DNA from: a virus
Taxonomy: Duplodnaviria; Heunggongvirae; Uroviricota; Caudoviricetes
Length of the DNA: 64,000 nucleotides
Strand: one strand, 5' to 3'
Virus record (IMG/VR): IMGVR_UViG_2974636330_000001
Location: 21,023-85,022 of that record
Each line of letters begins with the position of its first letter. The stretch's first letter is position 1. Below are positions 2-62,627 of this stretch, piece by piece. A program made the translations under genes and the position numbers. Below the pieces are notes generated by a model. It did no database searches and was not told the origin of the DNA. It saw nothing but the letters and a program-made list of their open reading frames with translations.

Positions 2-1957
2 GACCTGACGGTGCTGAAGGCCACGGCGCAGCGGCTGTACGATGAAGGGTTTGGGCTGTGCCTGAAGTGGAACAAGTCCGACAGTCTGGAGAAATGGCTG
101 CAATTGATTGCAGACCATGTGTGCGGCGTGATCAGTACGGACCGTAACACCGGCTTGCTCCGGTTTGATCTGGTGCGTGACGATTACGACTTCGATACGC
201 TGCCGATCTACGATGAGTCGAACATTCTGGAGATGACCCAGCTCGAACCCCCGGGCTTGGAGAACTCCACGAATGAGATGACCATCCAGTACAAAGACCC
301 GGTGTCGAACAACAAGGGATCGATCACCCTCCAGAGCCTCGCCAGCGTGCAGGTGCAGGGGCGTGTGGTGTCCGAGACCCGAGAGTACCCGGGACTGCCG
401 ACCGGCGCTCTGGCGGCTCGTGTGGGCCTGCGAGACCTGCGTTCGGTGTCGGTGGGTCTGAAGCGTGTGTCGTTCAAGGTGAACCGCACGGCGTACAACC
501 TGCGTCCGGGTCAGGTGATCCGCTTCAAGTGGAAGGCGGACCAGCTGGATATCGCCCTGCGTGTGGCAGAAGTCCAGTACGGCACCCTGAAGGACGGCAC
601 CATCAGCGTGACGGGCGTTGAAGACGTGTTCGGCCTGCCCGACAACACCTATCTGGAAGTGGAGCCGCCCGGCTGGGTTGAGCAGCCGACCACCGCGCTC
701 GACATGCCCGCATCGGTTGTCCGGGAAGCCAGCTACCTTGACCTGATCCGTATCCTGTCTGACTCGGAGTTCGCGGCTGTAGCCCCGGGCACTGGTCGCC
801 TGCTCACCTACGGACAGGCTCCGACTGAGCTTTCGTTGAACTACGGCATCTATACCCGTCTGGCTGGCACGACTGGCTATGCGGAAGAAGGGCTGGGTGA
901 CTTCTGCGCGGTGGCGTACTTGGGCGAGGTGATGGCTCAGGAAGAGCTGACCACGAACATCACGTTGGCTCCGGTGTTCCGCTCCTACATGATGGAGATC
1001 GGAGCGCTGTGTTCCTGCGGCGATGAGCTGATGCAATTGACTGCATGGGATGAGACCACCGGCAAGGCGAGCTTCAAGCGTGGTGTGGGCGACACTGTAC
1101 CGGCCCCGCACAACGCTCAGTCCCCGGTGTTCTTCTACGATGACAATTTCGGCTACGACACCCGGGAGTACGCGACGGGCGTCGATCTGGAGGTGAAGCT
1201 CCTGACCCGAACCAGCGAAGAGCAGCTGGCGGAGGCCAGTGCCACGACCAAGTACGTGGAGTTCAACGAGCGCTTTGATCGTCCGTATCCTCCGGGCAAG
1301 TTGATGGTCAATGGCCAGTATTACCCGGACGTGGTGACCACTCAGGACGTGAACCTGACTTGGGCTGGCCGCAACCGGAAGTTGCAGAACGATCAGCTGA
1401 TCGACTTCACGTACGGCAGCGTGACTCCGGAAGAGGGCACGACCTACAACGTAGAAGTCTTGAATGCGACGGGACAGCGGGTCCGGTTGATGACTGGCAT
1501 CGTGGGAGAGTCGTGGGTGTACACGGCTGCCATGGCGGTGACCGACAACCTCCTGTCCACGGCGCGGTTCCGAGTGTCGGCAGTGCGGGGTGGGCTGGAG
1601 TCTTTCCAGAAGCACGACGTTGCCGTGGAGCGCAATCCGCCAGTCGATCCGACTGTTGTTGACAGCGGCCCGTTGACCATCACGACCACCAGCCTTCCGC
1701 AGGGTGAAATCGGAACCCCGTACTATGCCCAGCTGACGAAGAGTGGCGGCAGCCAGTTCCCGAACTGGAGCGTTGACTCTGGGTTGGTGCCGGGCCTGAC
1801 GGTAGACAACGCGGGCGTGATCACGGGAACCCCGACCACTGAAGGCACGTTCTCCCTGATTGTCCGGGTGAGCGGTCCGCCGAGCCGCACGGTGACGAAG
1901 CAGCTGACCATCAGTGTGATCACCGACGAGTACATTCTGGATGGAGGCGGAGCCTGA
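2..1957 (+). CDS. tail fibre/baseplate structural protein with C-terminal Ig-like domain; 5' end runs off the window
   Basis: Frame is open from the window edge. 648+ aa; C-terminus (PYYAQLTKSGG...GTPTTEGTFSLIVRVSG) resembles bacterial Ig-like domains common on phage fibres. Fibre genes follow directly. Confidence 0.55.
   Translation, partial: DLTVLKATAQRLYDEGFGLCLKWNKSDSLEKWLQLIADHVCGVISTDRNTGLLRFDLVRDDYDFDTLPIYDESNILEMTQLEPPGLENSTNEMTIQYKDPVSNNKGSITLQSLASVQVQGRVVSETREYPGLPTGALAARVGLRDLRSVSVGLKRVSFKVNRTAYNLRPGQVIRFKWKADQLDIALRVAEVQYGTLKDGTISVTGVEDVFGLPDNTYLEVEPPGWVEQPTTALDMPASVVREASYLDLIRILSDSEFAAVAPGTGRLLTYGQAPTELSLNYGIYTRLAGTTGYAEEGLGDFCAVAYLGEVMAQEELTTNITLAPVFRSYMMEIGALCSCGDELMQLTAWDETTGKASFKRGVGDTVPAPHNAQSPVFFYDDNFGYDTREYATGVDLEVKLLTRTSEEQLAEASATTKYVEFNERFDRPYPPGKLMVNGQYYPDVVTTQDVNLTWAGRNRKLQNDQLIDFTYGSVTPEEGTTYNVEVLNATGQRVRLMTGIVGESWVYTAAMAVTDNLLSTARFRVSAVRGGLESFQKHDVAVERNPPVDPTVVDSGPLTITTTSLPQGEIGTPYYAQLTKSGGSQFPNWSVDSGLVPGLTVDNAGVITGTPTTEGTFSLIVRVSGPPSRTVTKQLTISVITDEYILDGGGA
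99..112 (+). repeat. 14-bp palindrome TGCAATTGATTGCA (inside tail-fibre CDS, encodes LQLIA)
   Basis: exact match. Confidence 0.9.
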
Positions 1958-2955
1958 TGGCCGTCGTAGTTGCACAACGGATGTGGCAGCGCCGGGACAC
2001 GGCTGCCAATTGGGCTTCGGTCAACCCGGTGATGGCTGCGGGTGAGATCGGTGTGGAATTGGGGGCGACGGAAGCCGACCCCCAGAAGTTCAAGATCGGC
2101 AACGGCAAGACCCCGTGGAATGGCCTGAAGTATGGGTCAGGCGATGATCTGCTGAAGGCGTATCTGGAAGCCCCGCCGATTGAAACGGTGGTCGGAACCG
2201 AGAAGGTGATGATCCTGAAGGATGGCGACCTTGTTGTAGTGCCTGCCCAAGCCCTGAAGGGTGGCAGTGGTGGCACTGGACAGGTGGCTGTCGAGATGCG
2301 TGTGGCTGATGGCTACATCCAGTACCGAAACATCGGTGAGACGACTTGGTATAACCTTGTTCTGCTGTCGGAGTTGAATCAAGGCTCCGATGTGAGGATG
2401 CGGCAGAATGGCAGCTGGCTTCAGTACAGTAACGACGCCGGGCTGACGTGGAACAACTTGGTGACGGTCGAGTCTCTGCGAGGCCCGCAAGGCGTCATCG
2501 GTCCGCAAGGTCTGGATGCGTATCAGGTGGCGGTGGCCAACGGATTCGCAGGCACCCGAGCAGAGTGGTTGGCCAGCTTGAAGGGGCCGAAGGGAGACAC
2601 GGGTCCGCAAGGCCCGCCCGGCATTCCCTCCCAGCGCCGCATTCAAGAAGTGAGTGACACGAATACGGGTTCGGTGCTGTGCGACTGGAACGCCTATGAC
2701 GAGATTCGAATCACCCTGACGACCGACACTCTGCTGGAGTTCACCGGGGCGCTGGATGGTCAGGGTTGTGTGGTGAAGGTACGGCAAGACGCAGTGGGAA
2801 GCCACGAGGTGTCTTTCAGCCCGAACGTCAGGTTCAACAGCCTGATCCCGAGCTACAACGCCACCATGACCCCCATGAAGGCGGATCGACTGGGTTTCGT
2901 ATATGATGCTGGTGACGATGCGTACGACTTCCATGCGATTGTCAATGGTATCTGA
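1957..2955 (+). CDS. tail fibre protein with collagen-like G-X-Y repeats
   Basis: N-terminus (...KIGNGKTPWNGLKY) matches the conserved phage tail-fibre N-terminal domain. Collagen-like runs GPQGVIGPQGL and GPKGDTGPQGPPGIP. TGATG overlap with the upstream gene. Confidence 0.7.
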   Translation: MAVVVAQRMWQRRDTAANWASVNPVMAAGEIGVELGATEADPQKFKIGNGKTPWNGLKYGSGDDLLKAYLEAPPIETVVGTEKVMILKDGDLVVVPAQALKGGSGGTGQVAVEMRVADGYIQYRNIGETTWYNLVLLSELNQGSDVRMRQNGSWLQYSNDAGLTWNNLVTVESLRGPQGVIGPQGLDAYQVAVANGFAGTRAEWLASLKGPKGDTGPQGPPGIPSQRRIQEVSDTNTGSVLCDWNAYDEIRITLTTDTLLEFTGALDGQGCVVKVRQDAVGSHEVSFSPNVRFNSLIPSYNATMTPMKADRLGFVYDAGDDAYDFHAIVNGI

Positions 2956-2957
2956 CG

Positions 2958-3134: not shown

Positions 3135-3141
3135 GGCATTT

Positions 3142-5138: not shown

Positions 5139-5152
5139 TGCAATCAATTGCA
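5139..5152 (+). repeat. TGCAATCAATTGCA (intergenic, 3 nt after stop)
   Basis: exact match. Confidence 0.9.
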
Positions 5153-7111: not shown

Positions 7112-7125
7112 TGCAATCAATTGCA
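7112..7125 (+). repeat. TGCAATCAATTGCA (intergenic, runs into RBS AGAAGGAGG)
   Basis: exact match. Confidence 0.9.
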
Positions 7126-10771: not shown

Positions 10772-11392
10772 ATGGAAGGTTTGAATATCACCCCGATGGA
10801 AGTCGTTGAGGCCGAAGGGTCGAAGCGCAAGTACATCGCCATCGCAAAGACGGACGGCGGCAAATTGTTCGCCGCTCTGGACTTCGAACTGAACATCATC
10901 ATCGACAAGCAGTCGAAGAAGAACCTCCCGGCCATCGGCGTGGGTGTTCGCTTCGCTGCTCTCGGCGGTGGTTCGTGGAACATGGAACACCGGGATCAGG
11001 GCAGTAAGTTGCCGGACGGGATGGAGAACCTCGAAAAGTTCTTCTTCGCGGTGAGCCTGCCCGGTCCGGTGGTCTACACGAACACCTTGATGGCCGAGAA
11101 GAAGATCGTGGCCCGCCTGTTCAAGTGGCTGCAATTGATTGCAGAGGTCAACAAGGCCGAACTGCTGGTGACCGAGGCGAACCTCCAGATGTGGTTCGAA
11201 GAGAAGTCCACCGGCCTGATCGACTATGACCCTGCCGACTGCCAGTTCCCCAACGAAGCGTGGGAAACCAAGAAGTCGGTGGCCGCTCCGGTGACCCTGA
11301 TGCCGGTCGTTGATTCCTCGGAAGACGAAGAGGAAGAAGAGGACGACGGCGAAGAGCAGGAAGAAGACGACGAGGAAGACGACAATGAGTAA
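10772..11392 (+). CDS. hypothetical protein with extreme acidic C-terminal tail
   Basis: Leader CAATGGAGTGAAAATG. C-terminus SSEDEEEEEDDGEEQEEDDEEDDNE. An acidic tail is reminiscent of SSB/gp2.5-type proteins, but no OB-fold is recognisable. Confidence 0.5.
   Translation: MEGLNITPMEVVEAEGSKRKYIAIAKTDGGKLFAALDFELNIIIDKQSKKNLPAIGVGVRFAALGGGSWNMEHRDQGSKLPDGMENLEKFFFAVSLPGPVVYTNTLMAEKKIVARLFKWLQLIAEVNKAELLVTEANLQMWFEEKSTGLIDYDPADCQFPNEAWETKKSVAAPVTLMPVVDSSEDEEEEEDDGEEQEEDDEEDDNE
11130..11143 (+). repeat. TGCAATTGATTGCA (in CDS, LQLIA)
   Basis: exact match. Confidence 0.9.
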
Positions 11393-15040: not shown

Positions 15041-15961
15041 ATGGGCGTATTCGAAGAGGGCGAGGCATCGGGCGGCGTAATGCTCCGTCCGTTGTATGTG
15101 CGTATCGGCGGTGATCTGGCGACGGGCTTGCTGCTCTCCCAGCTGGTGTACTGGTTCAAGCCGGGTAAGACCGGGAAGACCAAGCTGACCATCGTTCGTG
15201 ATGGCCGCAGGTGGCTCGCCAAGAGCCGCGAAGACATGTGCGCGGAGACGGGCCTCACCCTGAAACAGTACAAGCGTGCGATCACTGTGCTGATCGATCT
15301 GGAGCTTGTGCAGGTTGAGCGGCACCTGTTTGCCGGGAAGGTGACGCCGCATATCTGGTTGGACACGGAGCGGCTGGCACTGGCCGGTCAGTCCATTGGA
15401 CCCAAAGGGACCAATCCAAATGACGCAAAGGGACCAATCGGTTGGGACCATAAGGACCAATCATGTGTGGTCCCATTGGGGCCAACCATTACAGAGAGTA
15501 AGAGTACAAAGAACAAAGACTACGACATGCCCGCGAGCGGGCTGACTGAGCAAGGGCAGGAGAGTGACATGAAGGCAAGTGAAGTATTGGCGCAGAAGAA
15601 GGGCGGGCAGTTCCCGGATACGAGCGGCGGTAACGCCATGCGTTGGAAGGCTCGCATGAGTACGGAGTACGGGTTCCAGAAAGACCTGACCCTGAAAGAC
15701 CGGGCCATGATCAAGCAGTTGATGAAGAGTGCCGGGGAGAAGACCCCGGAGCTGATCGACTACGTGCTGCAACACTGGATGAAGTTCGCCAGTTACGTGA
15801 AGCAACAGGCCGGGTTCAGTACGGTTCCGCTGAGTCCGTCGCTGGGGTTCGTGGTGAAGCACGTAGACCACGGGTTGCAATTGATTGCACAAGGGGCAGA
15901 GGACGAAGAGAGCGACCTCGCGCCCGCGAAGAAAAAGACCAAGTTCGTCTACGAGGACTGA
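15041..15961 (+). CDS. putative DNA-binding/replication-initiation protein
   Basis: N-terminal ~120 aa (LYVRIGGDLATGLLLSQLVYWFKP...LTLKQYKRAITVLIDLELV) resembles winged-helix replisome-organiser/DnaD-type N-domains. Lies upstream of the helicase-primase block. Confidence 0.3.
   Translation: MGVFEEGEASGGVMLRPLYVRIGGDLATGLLLSQLVYWFKPGKTGKTKLTIVRDGRRWLAKSREDMCAETGLTLKQYKRAITVLIDLELVQVERHLFAGKVTPHIWLDTERLALAGQSIGPKGTNPNDAKGPIGWDHKDQSCVVPLGPTITESKSTKNKDYDMPASGLTEQGQESDMKASEVLAQKKGGQFPDTSGGNAMRWKARMSTEYGFQKDLTLKDRAMIKQLMKSAGEKTPELIDYVLQHWMKFASYVKQQAGFSTVPLSPSLGFVVKHVDHGLQLIAQGAEDEESDLAPAKKKTKFVYED
15876..15889 (+). repeat. TGCAATTGATTGCA (in CDS, LQLIA)
   Basis: exact match. Confidence 0.9.
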
Positions 15962-18380: not shown

Positions 18381-18890
18381 ATGGGCGTGAAAATGGGCGA
18401 TCAGAAGCAGGAGTTCCTGACCGAGGCAGAGCAGGAACAGTCACAGGATCAGAGCCAGAAGCTGGACCCGAAGGGTTTTGCCAAGCCGATCCAGACGAAC
18501 CTGACCCCGGTGCAGCTGGCGGTCAACGAGTTCACCAAGTGCAGTGCGGTGGTGGACGAAATGAAGCCGATGATCAAGTCGGTGGAAGAGCATCGCAAGA
18601 CCTTGCAATCAATTGCAGACGAGAAGGGTGCGCCGAACGAAGAGGTGACCCTGCACGGCACCGATGGGCGGAGCGTCACCTTCAAGGCCAAGACCGAAAC
18701 CCGCAAGATCGACAACATGAACGGCGTGATCGGCCTGTTGAAGGACAAGCTGTCCTACGACGACCTGATGGGCCTGCTGAAGATCAGCCTGACGGACCTC
18801 GACAAGATTCTGTCCCCGGCAGAGCAGGCGCAGTTCGTGAAGAAGGTCTACGGCAGCCGTACCCTGAAGGGCTACACGACCGGTGAATGA
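18381..18890 (+). CDS. hypothetical protein
   Basis: Leader CATAGGAGTGAATCATG after a CTTGCAAACGTGCAAG hairpin; 169 aa. Confidence 0.5.
   Translation: MGVKMGDQKQEFLTEAEQEQSQDQSQKLDPKGFAKPIQTNLTPVQLAVNEFTKCSAVVDEMKPMIKSVEEHRKTLQSIADEKGAPNEEVTLHGTDGRSVTFKAKTETRKIDNMNGVIGLLKDKLSYDDLMGLLKISLTDLDKILSPAEQAQFVKKVYGSRTLKGYTTGE
18604..18617 (+). repeat. TGCAATCAATTGCA (in CDS, LQSIA)
   Basis: exact match. Confidence 0.9.
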
Positions 18891-20962: not shown

Positions 20963-22323
20963 GCCTGATCGCCCCCTTCAAGATCGACCAGAAGCCCCTG
21001 TGGGTGGGCGCTGTCTCGGCTTACAAGTACGATGAAGTCCTCGAAAAGAGGATGACCTTCAAGAGCAAGTTCGGCGATGACGTGAACATGTCGTTCGTAA
21101 AGGACGGGATGTTGATGGTTCCGCGCCGACTGACTCCGGCTGGCGTGGGCGAGTACCGGACCACCCGTGACCTCGGTGCAATCAAGTGCAAAGTCGGGCC
21201 GCGCTCAGACGAACAGGCCAGCTGCATTGCACAGTCGGTGAAGCTGCTGAAAGCGGGCGTTGACCATATCCTGCAAGCACCGACCGGCTGGGGCAAGACC
21301 TACGGCGGCTCGGCCATCGCTGCGGAGCTGGGGCAGGCCACCTTGATCATCGTCCCGAAGTCGGACCTGATGTATGAGTGGAAGAACACCCTGATCAACC
21401 TGATCGGCATCCCGGCCAGTGAAATCGGCCTGATCCAAGGCGACAAGGCGGACTACGTAGGCAAGCGGTTCACGCTGGCGATGGTGCATTCGCTGGTGAT
21501 CGACGGCAAGTACGACCACGACCCGGCAATGCTGAAGTATTTCGGGCTGGTGATGTTCGATGAAACCCACAAGATGGCTGCCGACACGTTCCAGATCGCG
21601 GCCAGAATGTTCACCGCCAAGTATCGACTGGGCTTGTCGGCCACGCCGAAGCGCTCGGATGGCAAAGACCCGGTGATCGCAGCCCACATCGGTGAAGTGC
21701 TGGTGATAGGCAAGCAAGTCCCGATGAAGCCGAAGATCATCGTGGAGCGGAGCCAGTGGGCTATCCCGAAGTTCAAGCGATGGAACCCGGAGAAACAGCT
21801 GTACGAAATGCAGACCATGCCGTACTCGCCGGGGCGCATGGCCGGGGTGTTCAAGCGCATGGCGGCAGACTCTGCCCGTAATGCCATCATCGCCAACATG
21901 GCGAAACAGGCGTACGATGCGGGCAGGCACCACATCATCATGTCCGACACGCTGGAGCATTTGAAGTTGCTGCACCTGATCATCGCCAACAAGGGCGTGC
22001 CGGGTGAGCATTTCGGGTTCTATGTTGGCGGGACCAAGAAGAAAACGAAGGAAGAACTGGACTTTGCGGCCAGTAAACCGATAGTATTGGCTACGTACGC
22101 CATGACCAAGGAAGGCACGAACTATCCCAGCTGGGATATGTTGACCTTGGCGACCCCGAAGGCGGACGTGGAGCAGGCCATCGGGCGCGTGATGCGGATG
22201 AAGGAAGGCAAGAAGAAGCCCATCGTCTTCGATATCGTGGACATGGATTCCATCTTCAAGGGCTTCTACAGTGCCCGAGAAGTCCAGTATTACCGAGTAG
22301 GTGCGGAGATTGTGAAAGCATGA
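20932..22323 (+). CDS. superfamily-2 DNA helicase (DExH, ResIII-like)
   Basis: Motif I LQAPTGWGKT, motif II VMFDETHK, C-terminal helicase motifs (MSDTLEHL..., QAIGRVMR). Alternative TTG start at 20959. Confidence 0.7.
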   Translation: MDCQAEGVALSLIAPFKIDQKPLWVGAVSAYKYDEVLEKRMTFKSKFGDDVNMSFVKDGMLMVPRRLTPAGVGEYRTTRDLGAIKCKVGPRSDEQASCIAQSVKLLKAGVDHILQAPTGWGKTYGGSAIAAELGQATLIIVPKSDLMYEWKNTLINLIGIPASEIGLIQGDKADYVGKRFTLAMVHSLVIDGKYDHDPAMLKYFGLVMFDETHKMAADTFQIAARMFTAKYRLGLSATPKRSDGKDPVIAAHIGEVLVIGKQVPMKPKIIVERSQWAIPKFKRWNPEKQLYEMQTMPYSPGRMAGVFKRMAADSARNAIIANMAKQAYDAGRHHIIMSDTLEHLKLLHLIIANKGVPGEHFGFYVGGTKKKTKEELDFAASKPIVLATYAMTKEGTNYPSWDMLTLATPKADVEQAIGRVMRMKEGKKKPIVFDIVDMDSIFKGFYSAREVQYYRVGAEIVKA

Positions 22324-26660: not shown

Positions 26661-26674
26661 TGCAATTAATTGCA
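26661..26674 (+). repeat. TGCAATTAATTGCA (perfect-palindrome variant, intergenic)
   Basis: centre TA instead of CA/TG. Confidence 0.8.
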
Positions 26675-36867: not shown

Positions 36868-37926
36868 ATGTATGAGCTGACGTTGCAGACGCTGGGTTCC
36901 TCCCTGCACGCCCTGCCCCAGACCATTTGGGTGAAAGACAGTCCGGGCGACTGGGGTGACCTGATCACCAGCATGATGAGCCGCAAGACGTGGGAGAAGC
37001 TCCCGCAGATGAAGCATTTGAACCCCGCACGTAAGTGGGAAGTCGTCAGTGCATATCAGAAGGCAGTCCGGCGAGGTGATCTGGCAGTGGCCCTGAAGAT
37101 GGTCGCTGCAATTGATTGCACGGGGGATCAGGAGATGCTGAAGTACCTGTGGCGTCGAGTGCTTACGACCGTCGCAGAAGACTGTGGCCCTGCCAGCCCG
37201 GGCCTGATGGCATTCGTGATGGCCGCCCATGAGTGGACCAAGAAGGAAGTCTGGGGTTCGCAAGTTGCGATCATCGCTGTCCTGACGGAAATGATGTGCC
37301 TCTACCCCCGCAGCCGCACGTATTGTGCGATGAGCATCATTGAAGGGAAGTTGAAGGAGAAGCTGAAGGCCGGGGGCGGCTATGTGGACCTGTCGATGAC
37401 CCCGCTGGATGATTGGGAGCTGGAGTTCCTCGACTACCTGACCAACCGTCCGGATGAGCTGGACCAGACCGTGGCGCAGTGGTGCCGTAAGAAGGGCTGG
37501 CTGACCGAACACCTGTCCGACTACTACAGCTTCACCCCCGAGCTGGTGGATCGACCGGAAGAGCAGTTCCCGGCATCGGAGACGATTGCGGGCCTGCCGT
37601 CGTATGCGTACGACATGCACACGAAGATCGGCAAGACCCTGTTGTACAAGATCGGCGGGGAGCCTGAGCTGGGCATCCTGAAAGATACGGCGTGCAACGA
37701 CAAGCCGAAGGCGTTGGGCTGGGCGATGTTCTTCTGTGAGGGTGGGCGCATCCGGGATGAACTGTTGGATGTGCGTATTGCCCAGCTGGAGAAGAAAGTG
37801 GCCTATGGTCAGTTCGGTATGTCGGCAGAAGAAGGCGACGCACTGGAGAAGGCCATGTGGCTGGTAATCGACTCGGGTCGGGTGAATGCCCGGCGTGCGT
37901 ATGCAGCGAAGGCCATGTATGGATAA
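36868..37926 (+). CDS. hypothetical protein (352 aa)
   Basis: Leader GTAATGGAGTAAAGACATG after a terminator plus TATATT. Confidence 0.5.
   Translation: MYELTLQTLGSSLHALPQTIWVKDSPGDWGDLITSMMSRKTWEKLPQMKHLNPARKWEVVSAYQKAVRRGDLAVALKMVAAIDCTGDQEMLKYLWRRVLTTVAEDCGPASPGLMAFVMAAHEWTKKEVWGSQVAIIAVLTEMMCLYPRSRTYCAMSIIEGKLKEKLKAGGGYVDLSMTPLDDWELEFLDYLTNRPDELDQTVAQWCRKKGWLTEHLSDYYSFTPELVDRPEEQFPASETIAGLPSYAYDMHTKIGKTLLYKIGGEPELGILKDTACNDKPKALGWAMFFCEGGRIRDELLDVRIAQLEKKVAYGQFGMSAEEGDALEKAMWLVIDSGRVNARRAYAAKAMYG
37107..37120 (+). repeat. TGCAATTGATTGCA (in CDS, other frame: AIDC)
   Basis: exact match. Confidence 0.9.
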
Positions 37927-38508: not shown

Positions 38509-38759
38509 AGCCGCATGAAGTATCGGCACTGTTGGCCCGTATAGATGCAGGGCTGATGCGTGCGATGGACCAGTCTGGTCGGAATGTCATGGTCAAGACC
38601 GAAGACCTGCAAGAGTTGCGTAGGTTGGCTGAGGCCGGGCGGAGTCTGGAGTTCTACCAGACCCGTTGCAATCAGTTGCAGATGGCCATGAACAGCTTCC
38701 GTGATCCGGAGCGGCAGGTCGTGTGCGATATTCTGGCCAATGGAAGTACGAAGCGATGA
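38505..38759 (+). CDS. hypothetical protein
   Basis: 84 aa with overlap coupling. Confidence 0.4.
   Translation: MKPHEVSALLARIDAGLMRAMDQSGRNVMVKTEDLQELRRLAEAGRSLEFYQTRCNQLQMAMNSFRDPERQVVCDILANGSTKR
38667..38680 (+). repeat. TGCAATCAGTTGCA (1-mismatch copy, in CDS)
   Basis: one substitution in right half-site. Confidence 0.6.
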
Positions 38760-40231: not shown

Positions 40232-40245
40232 TGCAATTGATTGCA
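40232..40245 (+). repeat. TGCAATTGATTGCA (intergenic, fused to RBS AAGGAG)
   Basis: exact match. Confidence 0.9.
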
Positions 40246-41669: not shown

Positions 41670-41683
41670 TGCAATCAAATGCA
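41670..41683 (+). repeat. TGCAATCAAATGCA (1-mismatch copy, upstream of rhomboid gene RBS)
   Basis: one substitution. Confidence 0.6.
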
Positions 41684-43852: not shown

Positions 43853-44794
43853 ATGCGCGTTGCAATCACTGGCGGCACCGGATTCATCGGTACGAACCTG
43901 ACTAAGTACCTGCAAGAGAACGAGCCGAACACCGAAATCGTACTGGTTGATCTGGTCGCTCCGTGCATCGAACTCGGGCCGAAGACGAAGTTCGTCTATG
44001 CCGATATCCGGAACCTGAAGTCGCTGTTGAACGCCTTCGACGGCTGCGATGAAGTCTACAATCTGGCAGGCATCCTCGGCACGTCCGAACTGCTGTCGAT
44101 CAGTTCGCTGGCCTGCGAAACGAATATCGTCGGCGCGTGCAACGTCTTCGACGCCTGCATCGAGAAGGGCGTGAAGCGGGTGTACAACGTGGCGAAGCCG
44201 CACTTCGAAGGGTACGCGGAGAACGCCTACACCCTGACGAAGCACTCGGGCGAACTGCTCGGCCTGATGTACCGCAAGACGTACGGCCTCGACGTGGCAA
44301 CCGTCCGCTGGCTCAACGCAGTCGGCCCGTACCAGCACCTGTATCCGGTGCGTAAGTTCCTGCCGATGATGATCCTGCAAGCCTTCTATGGCTACGACCT
44401 CGAAGTCTACGGCAGCGGCAAGCAGACCATCGACCCCATCGACACCCGCGATCTGGCCCGCTTCACCCTGCACGCCTGCCGCGAGCTGGGCCAGCACCCG
44501 GACGTGGTTGACCTCGGCTCGGGCCGTGCAATCAGTTGCAACGACGCGGCGGAGCTGATCCTGAAGCTGGTGAAGGAAGCTGGCATCAAGACCGACAGCA
44601 AGGTGATCCACGTACCGATGCGTCCGGGCGAGGCTGACGATATCAACCTGTGCGCCGACACGACCTACTGGGATTCGGTGGGCATGAAGACCGAGTTCTC
44701 GTTCGAAGATTCGATCCGCGACACGATCCAGTACATGCGGAACCTCCCGGCGTACCACATGCAGAACGCCCTCCATTTCTACGGGCTGACCTGA
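43853..44794 (+). CDS. NAD-dependent nucleotide-sugar epimerase/dehydratase (extended SDR)
   Basis: MRVAITGGTGFIGTNL Rossmann motif; catalytic YTLTK. Confidence 0.7.
   Translation: MRVAITGGTGFIGTNLTKYLQENEPNTEIVLVDLVAPCIELGPKTKFVYADIRNLKSLLNAFDGCDEVYNLAGILGTSELLSISSLACETNIVGACNVFDACIEKGVKRVYNVAKPHFEGYAENAYTLTKHSGELLGLMYRKTYGLDVATVRWLNAVGPYQHLYPVRKFLPMMILQAFYGYDLEVYGSGKQTIDPIDTRDLARFTLHACRELGQHPDVVDLGSGRAISCNDAAELILKLVKEAGIKTDSKVIHVPMRPGEADDINLCADTTYWDSVGMKTEFSFEDSIRDTIQYMRNLPAYHMQNALHFYGLT
44527..44540 (+). repeat. TGCAATCAGTTGCA (1-mismatch copy, in epimerase CDS)
   Basis: one substitution. Confidence 0.6.
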
Positions 44795-47192: not shown

Positions 47193-48643
47193 AAATCCTG
47201 TTCGACGTGGTGTACACGAACCGACCGAGCGTCTGCTCGACCTCCTATTTGGTGTGGGAGCTGATCGAACGGTTGATGGAGTGGCGTGACGACATTTTCT
47301 TCTATGTCACGTACCCGCCGAACAAGATCAACGATGATGATCAGGAGTTTCTGGCACGGCACAGTGATCGGGTCCGTCTGCTGCCGGTGACCTCTGAACC
47401 GACCGACCGCGTGAGCGAACTGTTCTCGATCCCGCGCGAGCTGAAGAAGTATTTCGTACCGTGGAACAGCGAATGCTGGGACTATGACGTGGTGGTGAGC
47501 AGCCGCGTCCCGATGCTCGGAGCGTTCTGGCCCCACTTCGCACGGTACAGCGGCAGGAAGATGCCCGGCACCCGGGCCGTGTTCGGGCTGGAAGAAATGC
47601 CAGTGCTGCCGTTCCGAAAGACCGTGCCGTGGCACGAGCATCTGCATCTGCAATCAATTGCAAGTTACCTGCATTCGACCGGCATCCTGATCAACAACCA
47701 GTGGACGCTCACCGAGCTGAAGAAGGTGGGGCGTGATCTGCTGTCCCCGGCGCAGCTGAAGAAGCTGATGACCAAGGTCCACGAAGTGGTGCCGGTGCGC
47801 CTGACTCGCCTGAACCTGAAGAAAGACCTGACCGTAGGGGCGGAGTTCAACGTCACGTTCGTGGGCCGAGTGACCAGTACCCGAAACGTGGCGCAGGTGC
47901 TGGACCTGTTCCGTAAGCAGTTCGCGTACCCGATTGGGAAGACCGACATGCGGTTCCTGATCAGCACGAACAGCCTGTCGATGGGCGGCACCGACTACGG
48001 TGAGATGGACTTCATCGACATGCAGATGAACAACCGGAAGGAGTTCTACGAGTTCCTCGGCAAGGCACATGTCGCAGTCAACCTGACCCACGTAGAGGAT
48101 TTCAGCCTGTCCACGTGGGAGACCCTGCTCAACGGCGTGCCGGTGATCGTGTTGGATGAAGCATGGAACAGTTTCCTCGGGCCGGACTACCCGTTCCGGG
48201 TGAAGTCGCAGGTCGAGGCGTACGCCATGTTGAACGCCATGGTGAAAGACTATCCGGCCATGTACCAGAAGTTCGTGGACTGGGAAGCGTCGTACTGGGC
48301 CGCGTATGTGGACAGCGACAAGAACGTCACGACCTCGGAGAAGCTGATCGAGCTGATCGACAACTACGAGACGTGGCGCGATGGCCACCTGTCCGGAGAC
48401 GAACAGGGCAAGAGCTACAAGCTGGAGCTGGACGAGTTCCTGAAGGACGATCCGCAGGTGATCGACCTGACGGCCTACCTGAAGGACAAGAACAACGGAA
48501 CGGCCTTCCACGACGGCAAGTCGGAGTTCTTCTCCCTGCCGCTGGCGAAGGTGCCGAACAACCACCTGATCAAAGTGCTGGCTGGCCTGCGCGGCTACCG
48601 CGATACGAACCAAGTCGGCGTGATGGTGAAGGAGCAGCCGTGA
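47189..48643 (+). CDS. glycosyltransferase, GT-B fold (GT4-like)
   Basis: C-terminal EDFSLSTWETLLNGVPVIV matches the GT4 E-x7-E donor-binding motif. 484 aa. Confidence 0.65.
   Translation: MKILFDVVYTNRPSVCSTSYLVWELIERLMEWRDDIFFYVTYPPNKINDDDQEFLARHSDRVRLLPVTSEPTDRVSELFSIPRELKKYFVPWNSECWDYDVVVSSRVPMLGAFWPHFARYSGRKMPGTRAVFGLEEMPVLPFRKTVPWHEHLHLQSIASYLHSTGILINNQWTLTELKKVGRDLLSPAQLKKLMTKVHEVVPVRLTRLNLKKDLTVGAEFNVTFVGRVTSTRNVAQVLDLFRKQFAYPIGKTDMRFLISTNSLSMGGTDYGEMDFIDMQMNNRKEFYEFLGKAHVAVNLTHVEDFSLSTWETLLNGVPVIVLDEAWNSFLGPDYPFRVKSQVEAYAMLNAMVKDYPAMYQKFVDWEASYWAAYVDSDKNVTTSEKLIELIDNYETWRDGHLSGDEQGKSYKLELDEFLKDDPQVIDLTAYLKDKNNGTAFHDGKSEFFSLPLAKVPNNHLIKVLAGLRGYRDTNQVGVMVKEQP
47649..47662 (+). repeat. 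TGCAATCAATTGCA (in glycosyltransferase, LQSIA)
   Basis: exact match. Confidence 0.9.
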
Positions 48644-48951
48644 GCGACTACCTGATCAAGTCCATGATTCTGGCCGCAATCGCAGTAGTGATGGCGTTCC
48701 TGTTGTGGGGCCTGATCCGGGGCGTTCGGGAGAGTTTGCGTGCCTTGTGGTGGGTGCGTTATCAGCGTAGGATGATGGAACTGGGGGCGTGGCTCGACCG
48801 ATTCGAGACCCTGCAACCCGTGATTGTTTCGGAGGGGCGCAGGCTGGTAGCGGTGGAAGTAGCCGATGCAGATGCGGACCTGAGTTTGGAAAACTTCCTG
48901 AAGAAATATGGAGTGAACGAACGTGAGTTCTGCACCACTTACGGCCATTGA
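48640..48951 (+). CDS. membrane protein
   Basis: GTG overlapping the upstream stop; TM segment MILAAIAVVMAFLLWGLI. Confidence 0.35.
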   Translation: MSDYLIKSMILAAIAVVMAFLLWGLIRGVRESLRALWWVRYQRRMMELGAWLDRFETLQPVIVSEGRRLVAVEVADADADLSLENFLKKYGVNEREFCTTYGH

Positions 48952-49777
48952 AAAGACAGCGGCGCTTGGCCGAGTGATGCTGCCGGTCAGCAGTCTGTTC
49001 TCGAACGAGAAGAACCCGAACAAGATGAGCGATAAGGAGTTCAATCTCCTGTGCGACAACATCGAACGGGTGGGGATTACTGATCCGATCTTCGTGCGCG
49101 AACTGGAGGATGGGAAGTACCGTATCATCGGCGGCCACCACCGGTTCGAAGTGGCGAAGCTACTCGACTTCGTGGAAGTGCCCTGTACGGTGATCACCGA
49201 CCCGAACTTCTCGGAAGACGAAGAGTCGTTCCAAGTCATGCGCCACAATATGATCCGGGGTAAGCTCGACCCGGAGAAGTTCCAGCAGCTGTTTGCAGGG
49301 CTGAAGGAGCAGTACGCCGAAGACGTGATCGCGGAATCGTTCGGCTTCGCTGACGAGAAAGAGTTTGCCAAGGTCATGGCGCAGATGAAGAAGAAGCTGC
49401 CCAAGGACATGCAGGCAGCGTTCGAAGAAGCATCGAAAGAAATCAAGACCATCGACGGCCTGTCGAAGCTGTTGAATCGCCTGTTCTCGGAGCATGGCGA
49501 CACCCTGCCCTACGGCTACATGCTGATTGACTTCGGACAGAAGGACAGCATCTGGCTGCGTATGTCGAACGACACGCGCAAGGCGCTGCTGGAAGTGGGC
49601 AACCTGTGCAAGGCCCACGGACGGACCATGGATGATCTGCTGGGCGGCGTCGTGCAATCAATTGCAGCAGGCAACCACCCCGAACTGATGGCCCAGCTGG
49701 TGGCCAAGAGCAAGGAAGTGGTGATCCCCGAAGGGTTCAAGGAGTTGCCGACCGAGAATAATCTGGCGGTGGTCTGA
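48923..49777 (+). CDS. ParB-like nuclease domain protein
   Basis: KYRIIGGHHRFEVAKLL matches the ParB/Srx motif. Adjacent to the terminase genes, as often seen in phages. Confidence 0.55.
   Translation: MSSAPLTAIEKTAALGRVMLPVSSLFSNEKNPNKMSDKEFNLLCDNIERVGITDPIFVRELEDGKYRIIGGHHRFEVAKLLDFVEVPCTVITDPNFSEDEESFQVMRHNMIRGKLDPEKFQQLFAGLKEQYAEDVIAESFGFADEKEFAKVMAQMKKKLPKDMQAAFEEASKEIKTIDGLSKLLNRLFSEHGDTLPYGYMLIDFGQKDSIWLRMSNDTRKALLEVGNLCKAHGRTMDDLLGGVVQSIAAGNHPELMAQLVAKSKEVVIPEGFKELPTENNLAVV
49653..49666 (+). repeat. TGCAATCAATTGCA (in ParB-like gene, VQSIA)
   Basis: exact match. Confidence 0.9.
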
Positions 49778-50424: not shown

Positions 50425-52300
50425 TACAGAAATGTACGCCTACCTGCTGGAGAACCTCGGCCCACAGGACGGCAAGAAAGTATGGTTCCAAGGTCAGAAG
50501 ATTCACGACCTGCACGAACGTGCGAAGTTCTATGCGATGGTGGCGCAGGATATCGAGCTGATCCTGCGGGGAGAGCGTGCGCTCAATCTGGAGAACGAAG
50601 AGAAGTACAAGTGGCAACCGGTGGGAGTGCAGGAGTTCGTTGAGTCGCCCAACTACATGGATCGGCGCGGTGAGGTGTACCCGGCTGTCATGCAGGAGTT
50701 GGTCAACATCAACAGCGGCCAGTACCAAGAACTGGTGGCCACGGGCGGCATCGGCTCGGCCAAGACCACGATTGCCTTGTACACGATTGCGTATCAGGTG
50801 TACCTGATGAGCTGCCTGCGTAACCCGCACAGGTTGTTCGGACTGGACACGGCGTCGGAGTTGCTGATCATCTTCCAGTCGTTGAACGCGGCGATTGCGA
50901 AGGACAGTTTCAGCCGCTTCACGTCGATGGTGGAGAACAGCCCGTATTTCCAGAACCACTTCATGTTCAACAAGGAACTGAAGTCGCGTCTGGTGTTCCC
51001 GAACCGTATCGAAGTACGACCGATCTCTGGTCAGGAGTCCGGCGCGATTGGTCAGAACGTCATCGGCGGTTTGATCGATGAGCTGAATTACATGTCCATC
51101 GTAGAGAAGTCCAAGCAGTCGGTGGACAAGGGCACGTACGATCAGGCAGTGGCGCTGTACAACTCCATCGCCCGACGCCGAAAGTCTCGATTCATGAAGA
51201 ACGGCAAGATGCCGGGCATGTTGTGTCTGGTGTCCTCGAAACGTTACCCGGGACAGTTCACGGATATCAAGGAAGAAGAGGCCCGGAACGACCCGACGAT
51301 CTACATCTATGACAAGCGCGTGTGGGACGTGAAGCCGGAGGGTACGTTCTCGGGTGAGACGTTCTTCGTATTCGTGGGTGACGAAACGCGCAAGCCGAAG
51401 GTGCTGGAAGAGGAAGAGCAGGTCGAGGACGAAGATCGTCATCTGGTGATGGCCATCCCGGTGGAGTTCCGCGACGACTTCGACGGCCCCGGCGCGGATA
51501 TCATCAATGCCCTGCGCGAAATCGCAGGCGTCAGTACGCTGGCCCGGCATCCGTACTTCTCGAACACGAACGCCGTCGCCGCTGGTATGGGGACGCACGA
51601 AAGCATCTTCAGTCGGGAAGAAATCGACTTCGTGCAGACGAAGGCTGCGGTGTATCCGAAGCTGTTCTACAAGCCAGAACTGCCCCGATTCGCTCACATC
51701 GACTTGGCAATCTCGGGAGACAGTGCGGGTCTGGCCATCGGAACGGTGACTGGATTCGCGTCCATGAAGGAACTGGGCTACGGCGACAACGCGAACGAGA
51801 TGATGCCGATCATCCACTATGACGGGATGCTCGAAATCATGCCGCCGAAGGGTGGCGAAATCCTGTTCTGGAAGATCAGAGAGATTTTGGTCAAGCTGCG
51901 CGAGATGGGACTGAACATTCGGTGGGTGACCTTCGATAGCTTCCAGTCCACCGACAGCATCCAGTTGCTGCGAGCGCAGGGGTTTGTCACCGGCCAGATT
52001 TCCATGGATACGTCGGCCAGGCCATACGACACGTTGAAGAGCGCGTTCTACTCGGGCCGGGTCAAGGCACCGAAGCATAAGCGGGCACAAAAGGAGCTTG
52101 TCTCGCTGGAAAAAGACAGTAAAACTGGTAAAATCGATCACCCAGCCTCCGGATCGAAGGACGTAAGCGATGCGATGGCGGGTGTGGCATACGGCCTGAC
52201 CAACCGTCGAGAGATTTGGTCGATGTACGGCATCCCCATGGTGACTGTCCCGCAATCAATTGCAGTTGCGATGGACAAGTCTGAGCAGAAAATCGTCTAA
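50372..52300 (+). CDS. terL: terminase large subunit
   Basis: ATPase Walker A VATGGIGSAKTT and Walker B GLIDELNYM. C-terminal RNaseH-like nuclease (HIDLAISGDSAGLAIG...). Start ambiguous; in-frame candidates at 50372, 50411 (GTG) and 50432 (ATG). Confidence 0.8.
   Translation: MRERQVSSALIQQVNQLSTEMYAYLLENLGPQDGKKVWFQGQKIHDLHERAKFYAMVAQDIELILRGERALNLENEEKYKWQPVGVQEFVESPNYMDRRGEVYPAVMQELVNINSGQYQELVATGGIGSAKTTIALYTIAYQVYLMSCLRNPHRLFGLDTASELLIIFQSLNAAIAKDSFSRFTSMVENSPYFQNHFMFNKELKSRLVFPNRIEVRPISGQESGAIGQNVIGGLIDELNYMSIVEKSKQSVDKGTYDQAVALYNSIARRRKSRFMKNGKMPGMLCLVSSKRYPGQFTDIKEEEARNDPTIYIYDKRVWDVKPEGTFSGETFFVFVGDETRKPKVLEEEEQVEDEDRHLVMAIPVEFRDDFDGPGADIINALREIAGVSTLARHPYFSNTNAVAAGMGTHESIFSREEIDFVQTKAAVYPKLFYKPELPRFAHIDLAISGDSAGLAIGTVTGFASMKELGYGDNANEMMPIIHYDGMLEIMPPKGGEILFWKIREILVKLREMGLNIRWVTFDSFQSTDSIQLLRAQGFVTGQISMDTSARPYDTLKSAFYSGRVKAPKHKRAQKELVSLEKDSKTGKIDHPASGSKDVSDAMAGVAYGLTNRREIWSMYGIPMVTVPQSIAVAMDKSEQKIV
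52251..52264 (+). repeat. CGCAATCAATTGCA (in terL 3' end, PQSIA)
   Basis: first base C instead of T. Confidence 0.8.
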
Positions 52301-53682: not shown

Positions 53683-53916
53683 ATGACTATCGCCAACATG
53701 AAGAACTGGACCGTCCTGTACTACGGGAACAAGGTCGGTGAAATCAAGGCATACGACGCCATGTACGCTCAGGCTAAGGCAGAAGTGATGTTCGCCAAGC
53801 TGGGTGACGGCCCGATCACCGTGGAGCAGATCGTGGAGGAAGAGCCGGTTGCAATCAATTGCAGTGGCCTGATCCTCGGCAACGATCAGTTCGACATGTC
53901 TTTGTACGGAGTCTGA
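53683..53916 (+). CDS. small hypothetical protein
   Basis: ATG after a terminator plus TATTCT -10. Confidence 0.45.
   Translation: MTIANMKNWTVLYYGNKVGEIKAYDAMYAQAKAEVMFAKLGDGPITVEQIVEEEPVAINCSGLILGNDQFDMSLYGV
53850..53863 (+). repeat. TGCAATCAATTGCA (in CDS, other frame: AINC)
   Basis: exact match. Confidence 0.9.
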
Positions 53917-57461: not shown

Positions 57462-57475
57462 TGCAATCAATTGCA
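57462..57475 (+). repeat. TGCAATCAATTGCA (intergenic, fused to RBS AAGGAG)
   Basis: exact match. Confidence 0.9.
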
Positions 57476-58845: not shown

Positions 58846-59580
58846 ATGAAGAACTACGAAGAACCCACTGTTACCTTCAAGGAAGGCCCGACCGGTGGTG
58901 AAGAAATCCGCCACCCGGCATTCGGAAAGATTTGGGCCAGCCGTACGAATGGCAGGGAGAATCTGTACGGTTCGAATGTTGGCCACGACGGCTACATCAC
59001 CCTGCGGATCGATGAATCCTACATGGTGCGGGACGGCTACAGCGAACACATGTTCGGCGGTCACCACATCATCGAAGTGATGTTGAGCGAGGCGCAGTGG
59101 GTAGGGTTGATCAGCCGTATGAACCACGGCGATGGAATCCCCTGCACCCTGTCGTATCGCCCGCAAGGGCAGATGATGAAGGTGCCCCGCCTGCCGGAGC
59201 CGAAGAAGGCTGTCGAAAAGATGGAAGGCATGATCGACAGCATGACCGAAGAGCATGAGAAGCAGGCCAAGGCGTCTGCGGCCCAGCTGTGGGAACTGAT
59301 CGAGAAGCGTTTCCCGAAGAGCCTGCACCACGACGCCCGTATCATGCTGGATCGTGTGGTCGGGCAGGGCAAGTCCACCCGAGAGTTCCAGAAGGACCGC
59401 CTGACCAAGGTGAAGGAACGTTTGGTCAACGAATCGAAGGTGGAAATCGACGCCATGTTGACCAATGCGATCAGCAACTTGGGCGTGGCGAGCATCGAGC
59501 AGCTGGGCCAGATTCTGAGCGCCAACCCGGAAGCGGCCATGCAACTGATTGCACACGACAAGAAGGACTCGCAGGAATGA
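58846..59580 (+). CDS. hypothetical protein
   Basis: Leader ACAATGGAGTGAGCAACATG; 244 aa. Confidence 0.5.
   Translation: MKNYEEPTVTFKEGPTGGEEIRHPAFGKIWASRTNGRENLYGSNVGHDGYITLRIDESYMVRDGYSEHMFGGHHIIEVMLSEAQWVGLISRMNHGDGIPCTLSYRPQGQMMKVPRLPEPKKAVEKMEGMIDSMTEEHEKQAKASAAQLWELIEKRFPKSLHHDARIMLDRVVGQGKSTREFQKDRLTKVKERLVNESKVEIDAMLTNAISNLGVASIEQLGQILSANPEAAMQLIAHDKKDSQE
59540..59553 (+). repeat. TGCAACTGATTGCA (1-mismatch copy, in CDS, MQLIA)
   Basis: one substitution. Confidence 0.6.
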
Positions 59581-61921: not shown

Positions 61922-62334
61922 AGACAACCCTGTTGAAGGCAGCCGAAGCTGCCACGTTGGTGATCATCGAGAACGTCGATCAGACGGGCTGCGAAGTATT
62001 CCAGAGTGGAATGCTGCGCTTCGATGGAGCCGATGAAAATTGTTGGCTGCTGGACGGCAGTCAGGAACTGGAAATCGACGCCGAGGGCAAGGCTGTGGCG
62101 CAGGATGACGAAGGCTCCTTGAACATGGAGTTCCGTGTTACCCACCCGTTGACCGAAGACGACCTGAAGAGCGGCAACCGTGATCCGGCAGGCAAGCGTC
62201 TGACCGAAGGCTACCGCGCCCTGCGCGGGGTGTTGGATAAGGGGCAGTTCGGCCAGCACAACTTTACGTTGGACAAGGTGCAGATCGAGGGTATCCTCGG
62301 CCTGCTGTCCGGCGAGTTCGAAGGGGTCTACTGA
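61918..62334 (+). CDS. hypothetical protein
   Basis: GTG overlapping the ligase stop; 138 aa. Confidence 0.4.
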   Translation: MKTTLLKAAEAATLVIIENVDQTGCEVFQSGMLRFDGADENCWLLDGSQELEIDAEGKAVAQDDEGSLNMEFRVTHPLTEDDLKSGNRDPAGKRLTEGYRALRGVLDKGQFGQHNFTLDKVQIEGILGLLSGEFEGVY

Positions 62335-62627
62335 TGCCAGTATCGTTCAAACAGCGCGAGCCGGTGCAGCAGGACAGCGTGCAATCAATTGCACCGGAAC
62401 AGATGAGCCGCCAGCAGCTGATCGCCGCCATGATGGAAGATCGTCTGGACCCGGCCTGCTCCATCCGACCGGTGATGCAGAACCTGTTGCTCAATGGGCA
62501 CAAGGGGTTCAACAACATGTCGGATGCTGAACTGCTGGACGAAGTGCTGAATATGGGCACGTTCCCGGAAGAAGAGCGAATCCTTCCGAAGTCGCAAGCC
62601 TCGATCCTGCCGGTAAATAAGGCGTAA
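62334..62627 (+). CDS. hypothetical protein
   Basis: 97-aa ORF with ATGA-type coupling. Confidence 0.45.
   Translation: MPVSFKQREPVQQDSVQSIAPEQMSRQQLIAAMMEDRLDPACSIRPVMQNLLLNGHKGFNNMSDAELLDEVLNMGTFPEEERILPKSQASILPVNKA
62380..62393 (+). repeat. TGCAATCAATTGCA (in CDS, VQSIA)
   Basis: exact match. Confidence 0.9.

Follow-up and report, generated by a model that had tools for sequence, protein, structure and literature searches.

An evenly spaced, genome-wide array of 14-bp dyads in Stenotrophomonas phage DLP5 and its relatives, and a candidate phage protein that may read it

Dispersed arrays of operator-like sites are known from plasmids, host chromosomes and phages. On the IncP plasmid RK2, KorB reads 12 OB operators and has an IncC/ParA partner; like ParB and Noc, it slides via a cytidine triphosphatase (CTPase) domain. 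Sites of the ParB family are palindromes of 13-16 bp. Noc, itself a member of the ParB family, reads a 14-bp Noc-binding site (NBS) in Bacillus, and SlmA reads the SlmA-binding site (SBS) in Escherichia coli, both being 12-14-bp palindromes scattered as positional marks and not as promoter operators. Here we analyse a window of 64,000 nucleotides, bases 21,023-85,022 of the genome of Stenotrophomonas phage DLP5, a 96.5-kb siphovirus with nearly every gene on one strand, and a 14-bp word, TGCAATCAATTGCA, that recurs all along it. Relative to the arrays already described, what is new is the symmetry, even spacing and mostly intragenic placement of the sites, and a probable reader. On balance, we favour the view that these 14-mers form an evenly spaced genome-wide array bound by a phage-encoded homodimer, most likely gp066, which would organise the whole chromosome. 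The array, its conservation, its spacing, its occurrence across the clade and its symmetric variants are direct observations; that a protein binds it, which protein this is and, above all, to what end are inferred.

Compared with the OB operators of RK2, the phage sites lie at about double the density, with even spacing and a mostly intragenic placement, none lies at the 15 recognisable promoters, and the carrier is a phage. Also, gp066 has neither a detectable ParB-type N-terminal CTP-binding domain nor sequence similarity to KorB, and no IncC/ParA-type partner was seen. Noc and SlmA differ in that they serve host chromosomes, where sites are tens of kilobases apart, and act on cell division; Noc also carries a CTPase domain and a membrane-binding helix. 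Among phages, the stoperators of Cluster A mycobacteriophages (L5 gp71) are likewise two to three dozen 13-14-bp words, located in spacers and genes and conserved in relatives, that silence the genome by blocking elongation. The 14-mers share their dispersal through spacers and coding regions along the whole genome. However, stoperators are asymmetric, monomer-bound and oriented with transcription, whereas the sites described here are dyads kept in both orientations (24:12 in DLP5 and 10:10 in Pseudomonas phage FBPa45, with fully palindromic words in some lineages), and no immunity repressor was identified. Repeated scattered sites are also found in the plasmid-persisting phages P1 (C1 operators, ~94 kb) and N15 (centromere sites), but those of P1 are asymmetric, 17 bases long and located at promoters, those of N15 number only four and are read by SopB with SopA, and in neither phage are the sites spaced evenly or set within coding sequence. 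The nicks of T5-like and some Pseudomonas phages also fall on short recurring words, at fixed positions of a large siphovirus genome, and the replication genes of DLP5 resemble those of T5; the nick words differ in being asymmetric and on one strand. Finally, Cluster O mycobacteriophages reportedly carry many copies of a conserved 17-bp dyad for which no reader is known, unrelated to the present one in sequence, hosts and lineage.

The word is present in the window in 17 exact and 8 distinct one-mismatch copies (Table 1), against 0.03 expected from 100 dinucleotide shuffles, none of which contained more than 1 copy. In the whole DLP5 genome, 26 exact and 9 one-mismatch copies were found (35 sites, or about 1 per 2.7 kb), and the two-mismatch class is essentially empty. 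The original prediction on this window had listed at least 19 exact and 4 one-mismatch copies; all coordinates it cited are correct, yet our recount lowers the first number to 17 and doubles the second, the copies at 1032, 21177, 26661 and 52251 having been missed. Its proposed check, enrichment in the rest of the genome and in relatives, came out positive. Chance or base composition is ruled out as the source of the copies by shuffles of DLP5 and of two further phages, RcZahn and SIO-2. Isolated half-sites are not avoided, their counts being near Markov expectation.

The sites are distributed far more evenly than random placement would give. Across the genome, gaps range from 676 to 5,962 bases with a coefficient of variation (CV) of 0.47, compared to 0.97 for random positions, and 0 of 20,000 random placements were as even; for the 25 sites of the window, the CV is 0.45 (gaps 676-4746), again with 0 of 20,000 placements as even. 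Intergenic positions account for 11 of the 35 sites, while only ~5% of the DNA is non-coding (P about 1e-6). Gene junctions hold roughly one-third to one-half of the sites, and many begin 1-5 nucleotides past a stop codon or abut the next Shine-Dalgarno sequence. The copies at 5139, 7112, 26661, 29626, 40232 and 57462 are non-coding in the RefSeq annotation, as had been claimed, and the same holds for the copy at 41670 if the shorter gp125 start of the close relatives DLP3 and Summit is right. The RefSeq start of gp125 (41605-42225) indeed looks misplaced by ~90 nucleotides in the upstream direction: the gene begins later in DLP3 and Summit, and both the 14-mer and a Shine-Dalgarno sequence fall inside the extension.

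Where the word lies in genes, 13 of the 18 coding sites of the window read x-Q-(S/L)-(I/T)-A, which confirms the dominant frame noticed earlier; the others read A-I-D-C, A-I-N-C, A-I-K-C, A-I-S-C or C-N-Q-L-Q, in two other frames. A shared protein motif is ruled out, as the word occupies three reading frames as well as spacers. Information content is ~0 in the 25 bases that flank the 14-mer at either end, in line with the earlier remark that no similarity extends beyond the 14 bp. The sites are therefore not a mobile repeat: miniature inverted-repeat transposable elements (MITE), repetitive extragenic palindromic (REP) sequences and the like are ruled out by the lack of homology outside the core.

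Comparison of DLP5 with DLP3 shows how strongly the word is held. Identity is 97.7% within sites and 83% in the 60 bases on each side, and 28 of the 34 aligned sites show no difference at all, compared with 18.5% of random 14-mers (P about 1e-15). At the 18604 site, the central CA has become TG in DLP3, a flip that reverses the orientation and costs a Ser-to-Leu change yet preserves the word. These alignments indicate that selection acts on the 14-mer as DNA, as had been proposed. The one-mismatch copy at 52251 is conserved in neither DLP3 nor Summit and is therefore probably not a working site. The sites seem to be placed for genome coverage, using spacers first and otherwise any reading frame that tolerates the word.

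The array extends well beyond DLP5. It is syntenic in DLP3 (83% nucleotide identity; 24 exact and 10 one-mismatch copies) and in Summit (90%; 26 exact and 8 one-mismatch copies). RcZahn, a phage of the alphaproteobacterial host Rhodobacter with a TerL 54% identical to that of DLP5, carries 24 sites within two mismatches (0.5 expected; consensus TGCA(A/G)T(C/T)A(A/T)(T/C)TGCA; CV 0.67); in the epimerase gene, its orthologue has an exact site at offset 674, where DLP5 has the one-mismatch site at 44527. The Vibrio phage SIO-2 (45% GC; TerL 48%) has 25 sites (0.2 expected; TG(C/A)AAT(C/T)AATT(G/T)CA; CV 0.58), and the Samunavirus FBPa45 (TerL 29.5%) has 29 copies of TGCAA-N4-TTGCA (TGCAA(A/G)CG(C/T)TTGCA; CV 0.52). 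Members of the word family were found in 56 of 60 IMG/VR loci that encode gp066 homologues, at 1-7 sites per 10 kb. The DLP5 word itself is present in 8 copies in 20 kb (locus L193) of a 98,836-bp contig, LPCD01000108.1, of Burkholderia ubonensis assembly GCA_001528345.1, and the occurrence of this contig as a separate, phage-sized unit in an isolate assembly suggests that such phages are carried in cultures. Since the array is present in phages of several proteobacterial host classes, a host factor is unlikely and a phage protein is the simplest reader; likewise, five host genera among array phages argue against a host-specific uptake or recognition word such as DNA uptake sequences (DUS), uptake signal sequences (USS) or Chi. 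The 14-mer is not mentioned in the DLP5, DLP3 and Rhodobacter phage papers, and full-text literature searches for the 14-mers of DLP5 or of the Samunavirus phages hit nothing but primers and LacI-family operators, which agrees with the earlier view that this is not a described motif.

In FBPa45 (records L191 and L192), 8 of the 29 sites begin 1-2 nucleotides after a stop codon (positions 364, 16647, 35988, 41443, 42996, 72432, 80219 and 90834). Two FBPa45 genes start with the word itself (ATGCAAACGCTTGCA, giving MQTLA), and flanking bases lengthen the dyad to 16 bp (G...C).

Between lineages, the two half-sites change together. Consensus words include GGCAAT..ATTGCC, TCCAAT..ATTGGA, CGCAAT..ATTGCG, TGCAAGCGCTTGCA, TGCAATTAATTGCA and TGCAATCGATTGCA; the symmetry is also seen in GGCAATCAATTGCC, TCCAATCAATTGGA, CGCAATCAATTGCG, TGCAAACGTTTGCA and TGCACTTAAGTGCA. 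In several lineages the word is a perfect palindrome, so the family can do without the central CA found in DLP5. Such symmetric change is expected if one type of subunit reads both halves, although a hairpin predicts the same between lineages. Inside a single genome, however, not one of 55 deviating pairs shows compensation and 46 are broken, and the hairpin of the 14-mer is worth only -2.5 kcal/mol, or 0 for the commonest SIO-2 variants. We conclude that the site is most probably read as duplex DNA by a homodimer, which supports the original prediction of a site for a dimeric DNA-binding protein; the lack of a stable stem and of compensatory changes argues against a structured RNA or intrinsic terminator hairpin.

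Which protein might this be? Among the candidate DNA-binding proteins tested, gp066 alone is present in all four groups, DLP5, RcZahn, SIO-2 and FBPa45, the diverged FBPa45 homologue being found only through intermediate homologues. This 267-residue core phage protein belongs to a very large family: 458 close homologues were counted, and clustering at 50% identity gives 3,038 representatives. Its sequence has no match in Pfam or the Protein Data Bank (PDB); lower-score matches are to DnaA domain IV, P1 ParB, SopB and VirB. In the structural model, residues 1-30 are disordered and are followed by a helical domain with a putative helix-turn-helix (HTH) at ~31-163 and by a C-terminal helical domain; the predicted recognition helix spans residues 98-113 (F-G-F-x-x-R99-K100-A101-x-Y-L). 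The modelled central domain resembles the HTH DNA-binding domain of ParB and KorB. This fold assignment is only suggestive because Foldseek against the PDB returned nothing significant and against BFVD only weak DUF3102 and ParB-like matches.

The recognition helix varies with the half-site. Every lineage with a TGCAA half-site, including lineages at 24-35% identity, has R-K-A or R-R-A at the triad corresponding to residues 99-101. Lineages with GGCAA (L159/L160 and the separately sampled L195) have R-T-I or R-T-A, and the TCCAA lineage (L184/L185) has S-K-A. It is chemically sensible that the arginine is lost where the guanine is lost. Loci with R-K-V-E-R, T-R-A, G-K-A or A-K-T show no TGCAA-type dyads, some of these loci being short. 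One of them (L197; GCA_037975565.1, gene at 10001-10777) encodes a divergent family member with A-K-T beside an integrase; it appears to belong to an integrated prophage of another kind, and no TGCAA-type dyad array surrounds it.

The gp066 gene itself is often preceded by a site. In DLP5, DLP3 and Summit, the upstream spacer consists of the site, 8 nucleotides, TTTACA, ~16 nucleotides, TACTCT, a leader and ATG; RcZahn has the site, 8 nucleotides, TTGCAA, ~17 nucleotides and TACTAT, and FBPa45 also has a site upstream of its homologue. Overall, 30 of 65 loci have a site upstream of the gp066 homologue, against 20% expected from the loci's own site density, and in some lineages two sites 23 bp apart are found there. 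A terminator-like hairpin with a T-rich tail (26635-26651) closes gp065 directly before the palindromic site of DLP5.

The original prediction had named, besides a histone-H1-like protein, a ParB-like and a MerR-like protein as candidates and did not mention gp066, which, from the distribution of the genes, fits better than the latter two. The ParB/Noc-like gp114 (Pfam ParB_N at E 1e-9, with an alignment to Noc and Spo0J that extends through the HTH region) is present in DLP5 and RcZahn and is missing from the array-bearing SIO-2 and FBPa45. The MerR-like gp059 is present in DLP5, SIO-2 and FBPa45 and missing from the RcZahn lineage, and its recognition helix varies freely among phages with one common word. 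The replication-initiator-like gp049 is found in DLP5 and RcZahn and is absent from SIO-2 and FBPa45. The module of gp114, gp113 (a small hypothetical protein) and TerL, up to 52300, is kept at the start of the RcZahn record; in SIO-2, an HTH protein takes the place of the ParB-like gene upstream of TerL.

Table 1 Copies of the 14-mer and related features in the window (window coordinates)
Feature	Position	Strand	Context
Exact site	99..112	-	Inside tail protein gp024, reads LQLIA; kept in DLP3 and Summit
One-mismatch site TGCAGTCAATTGCA	1032..1045	-	Inside gp024; identical in DLP3 and Summit
Exact site	5139..5152	+	Spacer between tail fibre gp028 and holin gp029
Exact site	7112..7125	+	gp032/gp033 spacer, abuts gp033 Shine-Dalgarno
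Exact site	11130..11143	-	Inside gp042; centre is CG in DLP3
Exact site	15876..15889	-	Inside gp049 (replication-initiator-like, phrog_428)
Exact site	18604..18617	+	Inside gp054; flipped in DLP3 orthologue
One-mismatch site TGCAATCAAGTGCA	21177..21190	+	Inside SF2 helicase gp058
Exact site	25667..25680	-	Inside RuvC-like gp064
Perfect palindrome variant TGCAATTAATTGCA (one mismatch)	26661..26674	.	gp065/gp066 spacer, 64 nt upstream of gp066 start codon
Spacer with putative gp066 promoter (TTTACA-N16-TACTCT) and GGAGTG leader	26675..26738	+	Resembles the 15 leader-associated promoter-like boxes
gp066	26739-27542	+	267 aa, core phage protein, candidate reader
Exact site	29626..29639	+	Between tRNA genes
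Exact site	34012..34025	+	Inside gp142
Exact site	36431..36444	+	3' end of epimerase gp139, overlaps its stop codon
Exact site	37107..37120	-	Inside gp137, frame A-I-D-C
One-mismatch site TGCAATCAGTTGCA	38667..38680	+	Inside gp134
Exact site	40232..40245	-	gp129/gp128 spacer, fused to gp128 Shine-Dalgarno
One-mismatch site TGCAATCAAATGCA	41670..41683	+	Directly upstream of likely true start of rhomboid gp125
One-mismatch site	44527..44540	+	Inside epimerase gp121, gene offset 674
Exact site	47649..47662	+	Inside glycosyltransferase gp116
gp114	48923..49777	+	ParB/Noc-like; GHHR replaces the CTP-binding motif GERR
Exact site	49653..49666	+	Inside ParB/Noc-like gp114
One-mismatch copy CGCAATCAATTGCA	52251..52264	+	Near end of TerL; probably not a working site
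Exact site	53850..53863	+	Inside gp109, frame A-I-N-C
Exact site	57462..57475	+	Fills spacer from gp100 stop codon to gp099 Shine-Dalgarno
One-mismatch site	59540..59553	-	Inside gp095
Exact site	62380..62393	+	Inside gp087

Around the site at 29626, the tRNA cluster (29248-29839) holds an annotated amber-suppressor tRNA (Sup-CTA), and the tRNA sets of DLP5, DLP3 and Summit are not the same. A minus-strand open reading frame among these tRNA genes, gp149 (29594-29719), looks spurious.

A second word, (C)AATGGAGTG(A), occurs in 15 copies in DLP5, all on the + strand and 5-9 nucleotides before a start codon (8091, 8920, 10760, 13350, 27714, 32550, 54365, 58377, 58831 and 62674 in the window, and five more outside it). 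A promoter-like box, TTGCTATTCTA or CGGTACGATA, stands 25-45 nucleotides upstream of each copy, and the units are kept in DLP3, Summit and the metagenomic relative L195. They look like an early promoter family with a shared leader and an extended Shine-Dalgarno sequence. The 14-mer is ruled out as a promoter, as this separate box serves the AATGGAGTG leaders and 14-mers are also found 10-15 nucleotides from start codons.

How might gp066 act? Each subunit would read one half-site, TGCAAT(C/T), with R99 facing base 2 and K100 facing base 1. One dimer would then sit about every 2.7 kb along the chromosome, and the bound dimers would nucleate a chromosome-wide nucleoprotein organisation, which might compact or bridge the DNA, insulate or silence transcription, or segregate or self-mark the genome as an episome or during replication. 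Even spacing, no preference for any class of gene and the absence of sites from recognisable promoters speak for a role that requires the whole chromosome to be covered, as opposed to one in controlling individual promoters. According to published work, DLP5 persists as a phagemid and DLP3 forms lysogens (PMC5834331, PMC7326821); together with the separate contig in the Burkholderia isolate, these reports make episome silencing or segregation plausible. On the other hand, Samunavirus UF_RH6, from a genus with the array, was described as lytic in its genome announcement, and no DLP5-like replicon was found among the 72,556 plasmids of PLSDB, both of which weigh against such a role. A bolder proposal, which we put forward tentatively and hold to be possible rather than probable, is that a widespread Pfam-less protein family reads a dyad placed every ~3 kb and forms with it a co-evolving self-marking scaffold, a counterpart of KorB or Noc without the CTPase module. 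The assemblage concerned comprises 80-120-kb siphoviruses with hosts in Stenotrophomonas, Pseudomonas, Vibrio, Rhodobacter, Rhizobium and Burkholderia.

Several observations weigh against gp066 as reader or against the function proposed for it. None of the 15 AATGGAGTG promoter/leader units adjoins a 14-mer, and a classical operator role is therefore not supported. The putative gp066 promoter falls under the threshold of the promoter scanner, and SIO-2 has no site upstream of its gp066 homologue. The sites are biased to the coding strand in DLP5, RcZahn (21:3) and SIO-2, which a symmetric dimer does not explain; the bias is absent in FBPa45. The covariation of helix and half-site amounts to two or three independent lineage events, uncorrected for phylogeny, and the loci without a dyad are short (5-20 kb). 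Co-occurrence of gp066 and the array is confounded by shared ancestry, the carriers being all related and sharing many genes; no close relative without gp066 was found, and FBPa45, fetched as a negative control, has both the array and a homologue. Neither gp066 nor 36 homologues, nor longer homologues, have the Pfam ParB_N (CTPase) domain, and hhalign detects no relation between gp066 and gp114. No ParA was seen, and none is annotated in DLP5, RcZahn, SIO-2 or FBPa45, a part of whose proteins was scanned; gp041 and gp086, both AAA ATPases, match phrog_10401 rather than ParA. The likeness of the proposed function to that of KorB on its RK2 operators, or of the Noc sites, is one of analogy only.

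The 14-mers could instead be parS-like centromere or loading sites of gp114, whose loading and spreading would partition or silence a phage in the plasmid state. The 14-bp dyad, palindromic in several lineages, has the size and symmetry of a ParB-family site, and the ParB_N domain and Noc/Spo0J alignment of gp114, a site within the gp114 gene, the phagemid and lysogenic states of DLP5 and DLP3, and the 98.8-kb Burkholderia relative all suit such a role. Nevertheless, we consider it unlikely: neither a gp114 homologue nor a ParB_N domain was detected in the array-bearing SIO-2 and FBPa45, the site within the gene is not conserved in RcZahn, gp114 reads GHHR in place of GERR, no ParA was seen, and the absence of a DLP5-like plasmid and the presence of the array in Samunavirus phages described as lytic count against it as well. 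Programmed nicks or cleavages by a phage endonuclease, as in T5, would serve recombination-dependent replication, and their even spacing would suit the supply of DNA ends; annotation notes record T5-like matches for the polymerase and helicase of the replication module, and the phage also encodes a DNA ligase, a UvsX-like recombinase, a RecB-type exonuclease and two resolvases. Known nick consensus sequences are asymmetric and strand-specific, however, which counts against this explanation. Here, both orientations are conserved, some lineages are palindromic and FBPa45 has equal numbers of each orientation, so the strand-specific nick site put forward in the original prediction is disfavoured; moreover, cleavage by a palindrome-bound dimer would be expected to affect both strands, and no nickase gene was identified. 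We therefore regard nicking as quite improbable. Equally, the sites could be multiple pac-like entry points for terminase on concatemers, in keeping with the circular permutation of RcZahn (PMC8601537), with a gp066 homologue a few genes upstream of TerL in SIO-2 and FBPa45, and with a ParB-like gene before TerL in DLP5 and RcZahn. But symmetric sites would give a polar motor no direction, related RcF phages are reported to have a single P1-type pac (PMC8601537), and nothing ties the sites to genome ends, making this explanation most unlikely.

The sites might also be targets, or protected windows, of a phage DNA-modification machinery. DLP5 DNA was cut by 4 of 36 restriction enzymes and DLP3 DNA by 0 of 15, and both DNAs were reported as heavily modified (PMC5834331, PMC7326821). 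ThyX-like, PPDK-like kinase and phosphatase genes are common to the clade, and a sugar-modification cluster is common to the DLP5/RcZahn branch. Resistance to enzymes with unrelated recognition sequences nonetheless implies a modification far denser than 1 per 2.7 kb, and we know of no modification motif as long as 14 bp; we thus hold this to be very unlikely. Could the word act as an RNA or single-stranded DNA hairpin, a signal for processing, pausing, termination or translational coupling at gene junctions? The share of sites at junctions, many near a stop codon or Shine-Dalgarno sequence, the coding-strand bias in three phages and the symmetric lineage variants, which would keep base pairing, all point that way, but the stem is weak or absent, broken pairs go uncompensated, the stem sequence itself is invariant beyond what pairing asks for, and minus-oriented sites are equally conserved, so that we give the hairpin very little credence. 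A host transcription factor such as a LacI-family regulator, hijacked or titrated by the phage, would account for the shape TGNAANNNNTTNCA, which fits LacI-family operators, and the only literature matches to the 12-mer cores of the Samunavirus words are papers on MalR and CcpA operators. Yet the array is kept across phages of Stenotrophomonas, Rhodobacter, Vibrio, Pseudomonas and Burkholderia, and its lineage variants follow a phage protein; a host reader is thus barely credible. The consensus sequences of IHF, Fis, sigma-54 and FNR, compared by eye, do not fit the word.

As a separate observation, two conserved gene sets suggest DNA hypermodification in these phages, judging from the encoded proteins. 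They lie at 43210-48643 and 64558-69973 in window numbering, and in RcZahn at 4303-9547 (L127) and 46392-50000 (L128). Genes for a PPDK-like kinase, two PTP-like phosphatases, a conserved 338-residue protein and ThyX-like proteins are shared by DLP5, RcZahn and SIO-2; a cluster of deacetylase, epimerase, aminotransferase, methyltransferase and glycosyltransferase genes is shared by DLP5 and RcZahn. The methyltransferase of this cluster was interpreted as Erm in the phage papers reporting restriction resistance.

If gp066 does read the array, a whole phage assemblage would possess a conserved DNA-protein marking system that has so far gone undescribed, in phages that include therapeutic candidates against S. 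maltophilia and P. aeruginosa as well as vibriophages known for pseudolysogeny. About 35 positions per genome would be constrained by it, including the amino-acid sequence of a dozen unrelated proteins, and engineering or recoding of these phages should respect the sites. A recognition code would follow, with R99 assigned to base 2 and K100 to base 1 of the half-site, and a large family of "hypothetical" proteins would acquire a function. The word and its lineage variants also provide a simple marker by which such phages can be recognised and classified in metagenomes. Finally, the array would open a way to study the organisation of large phage genomes whose genes are transcribed co-directionally, or their quieting in the carrier state.

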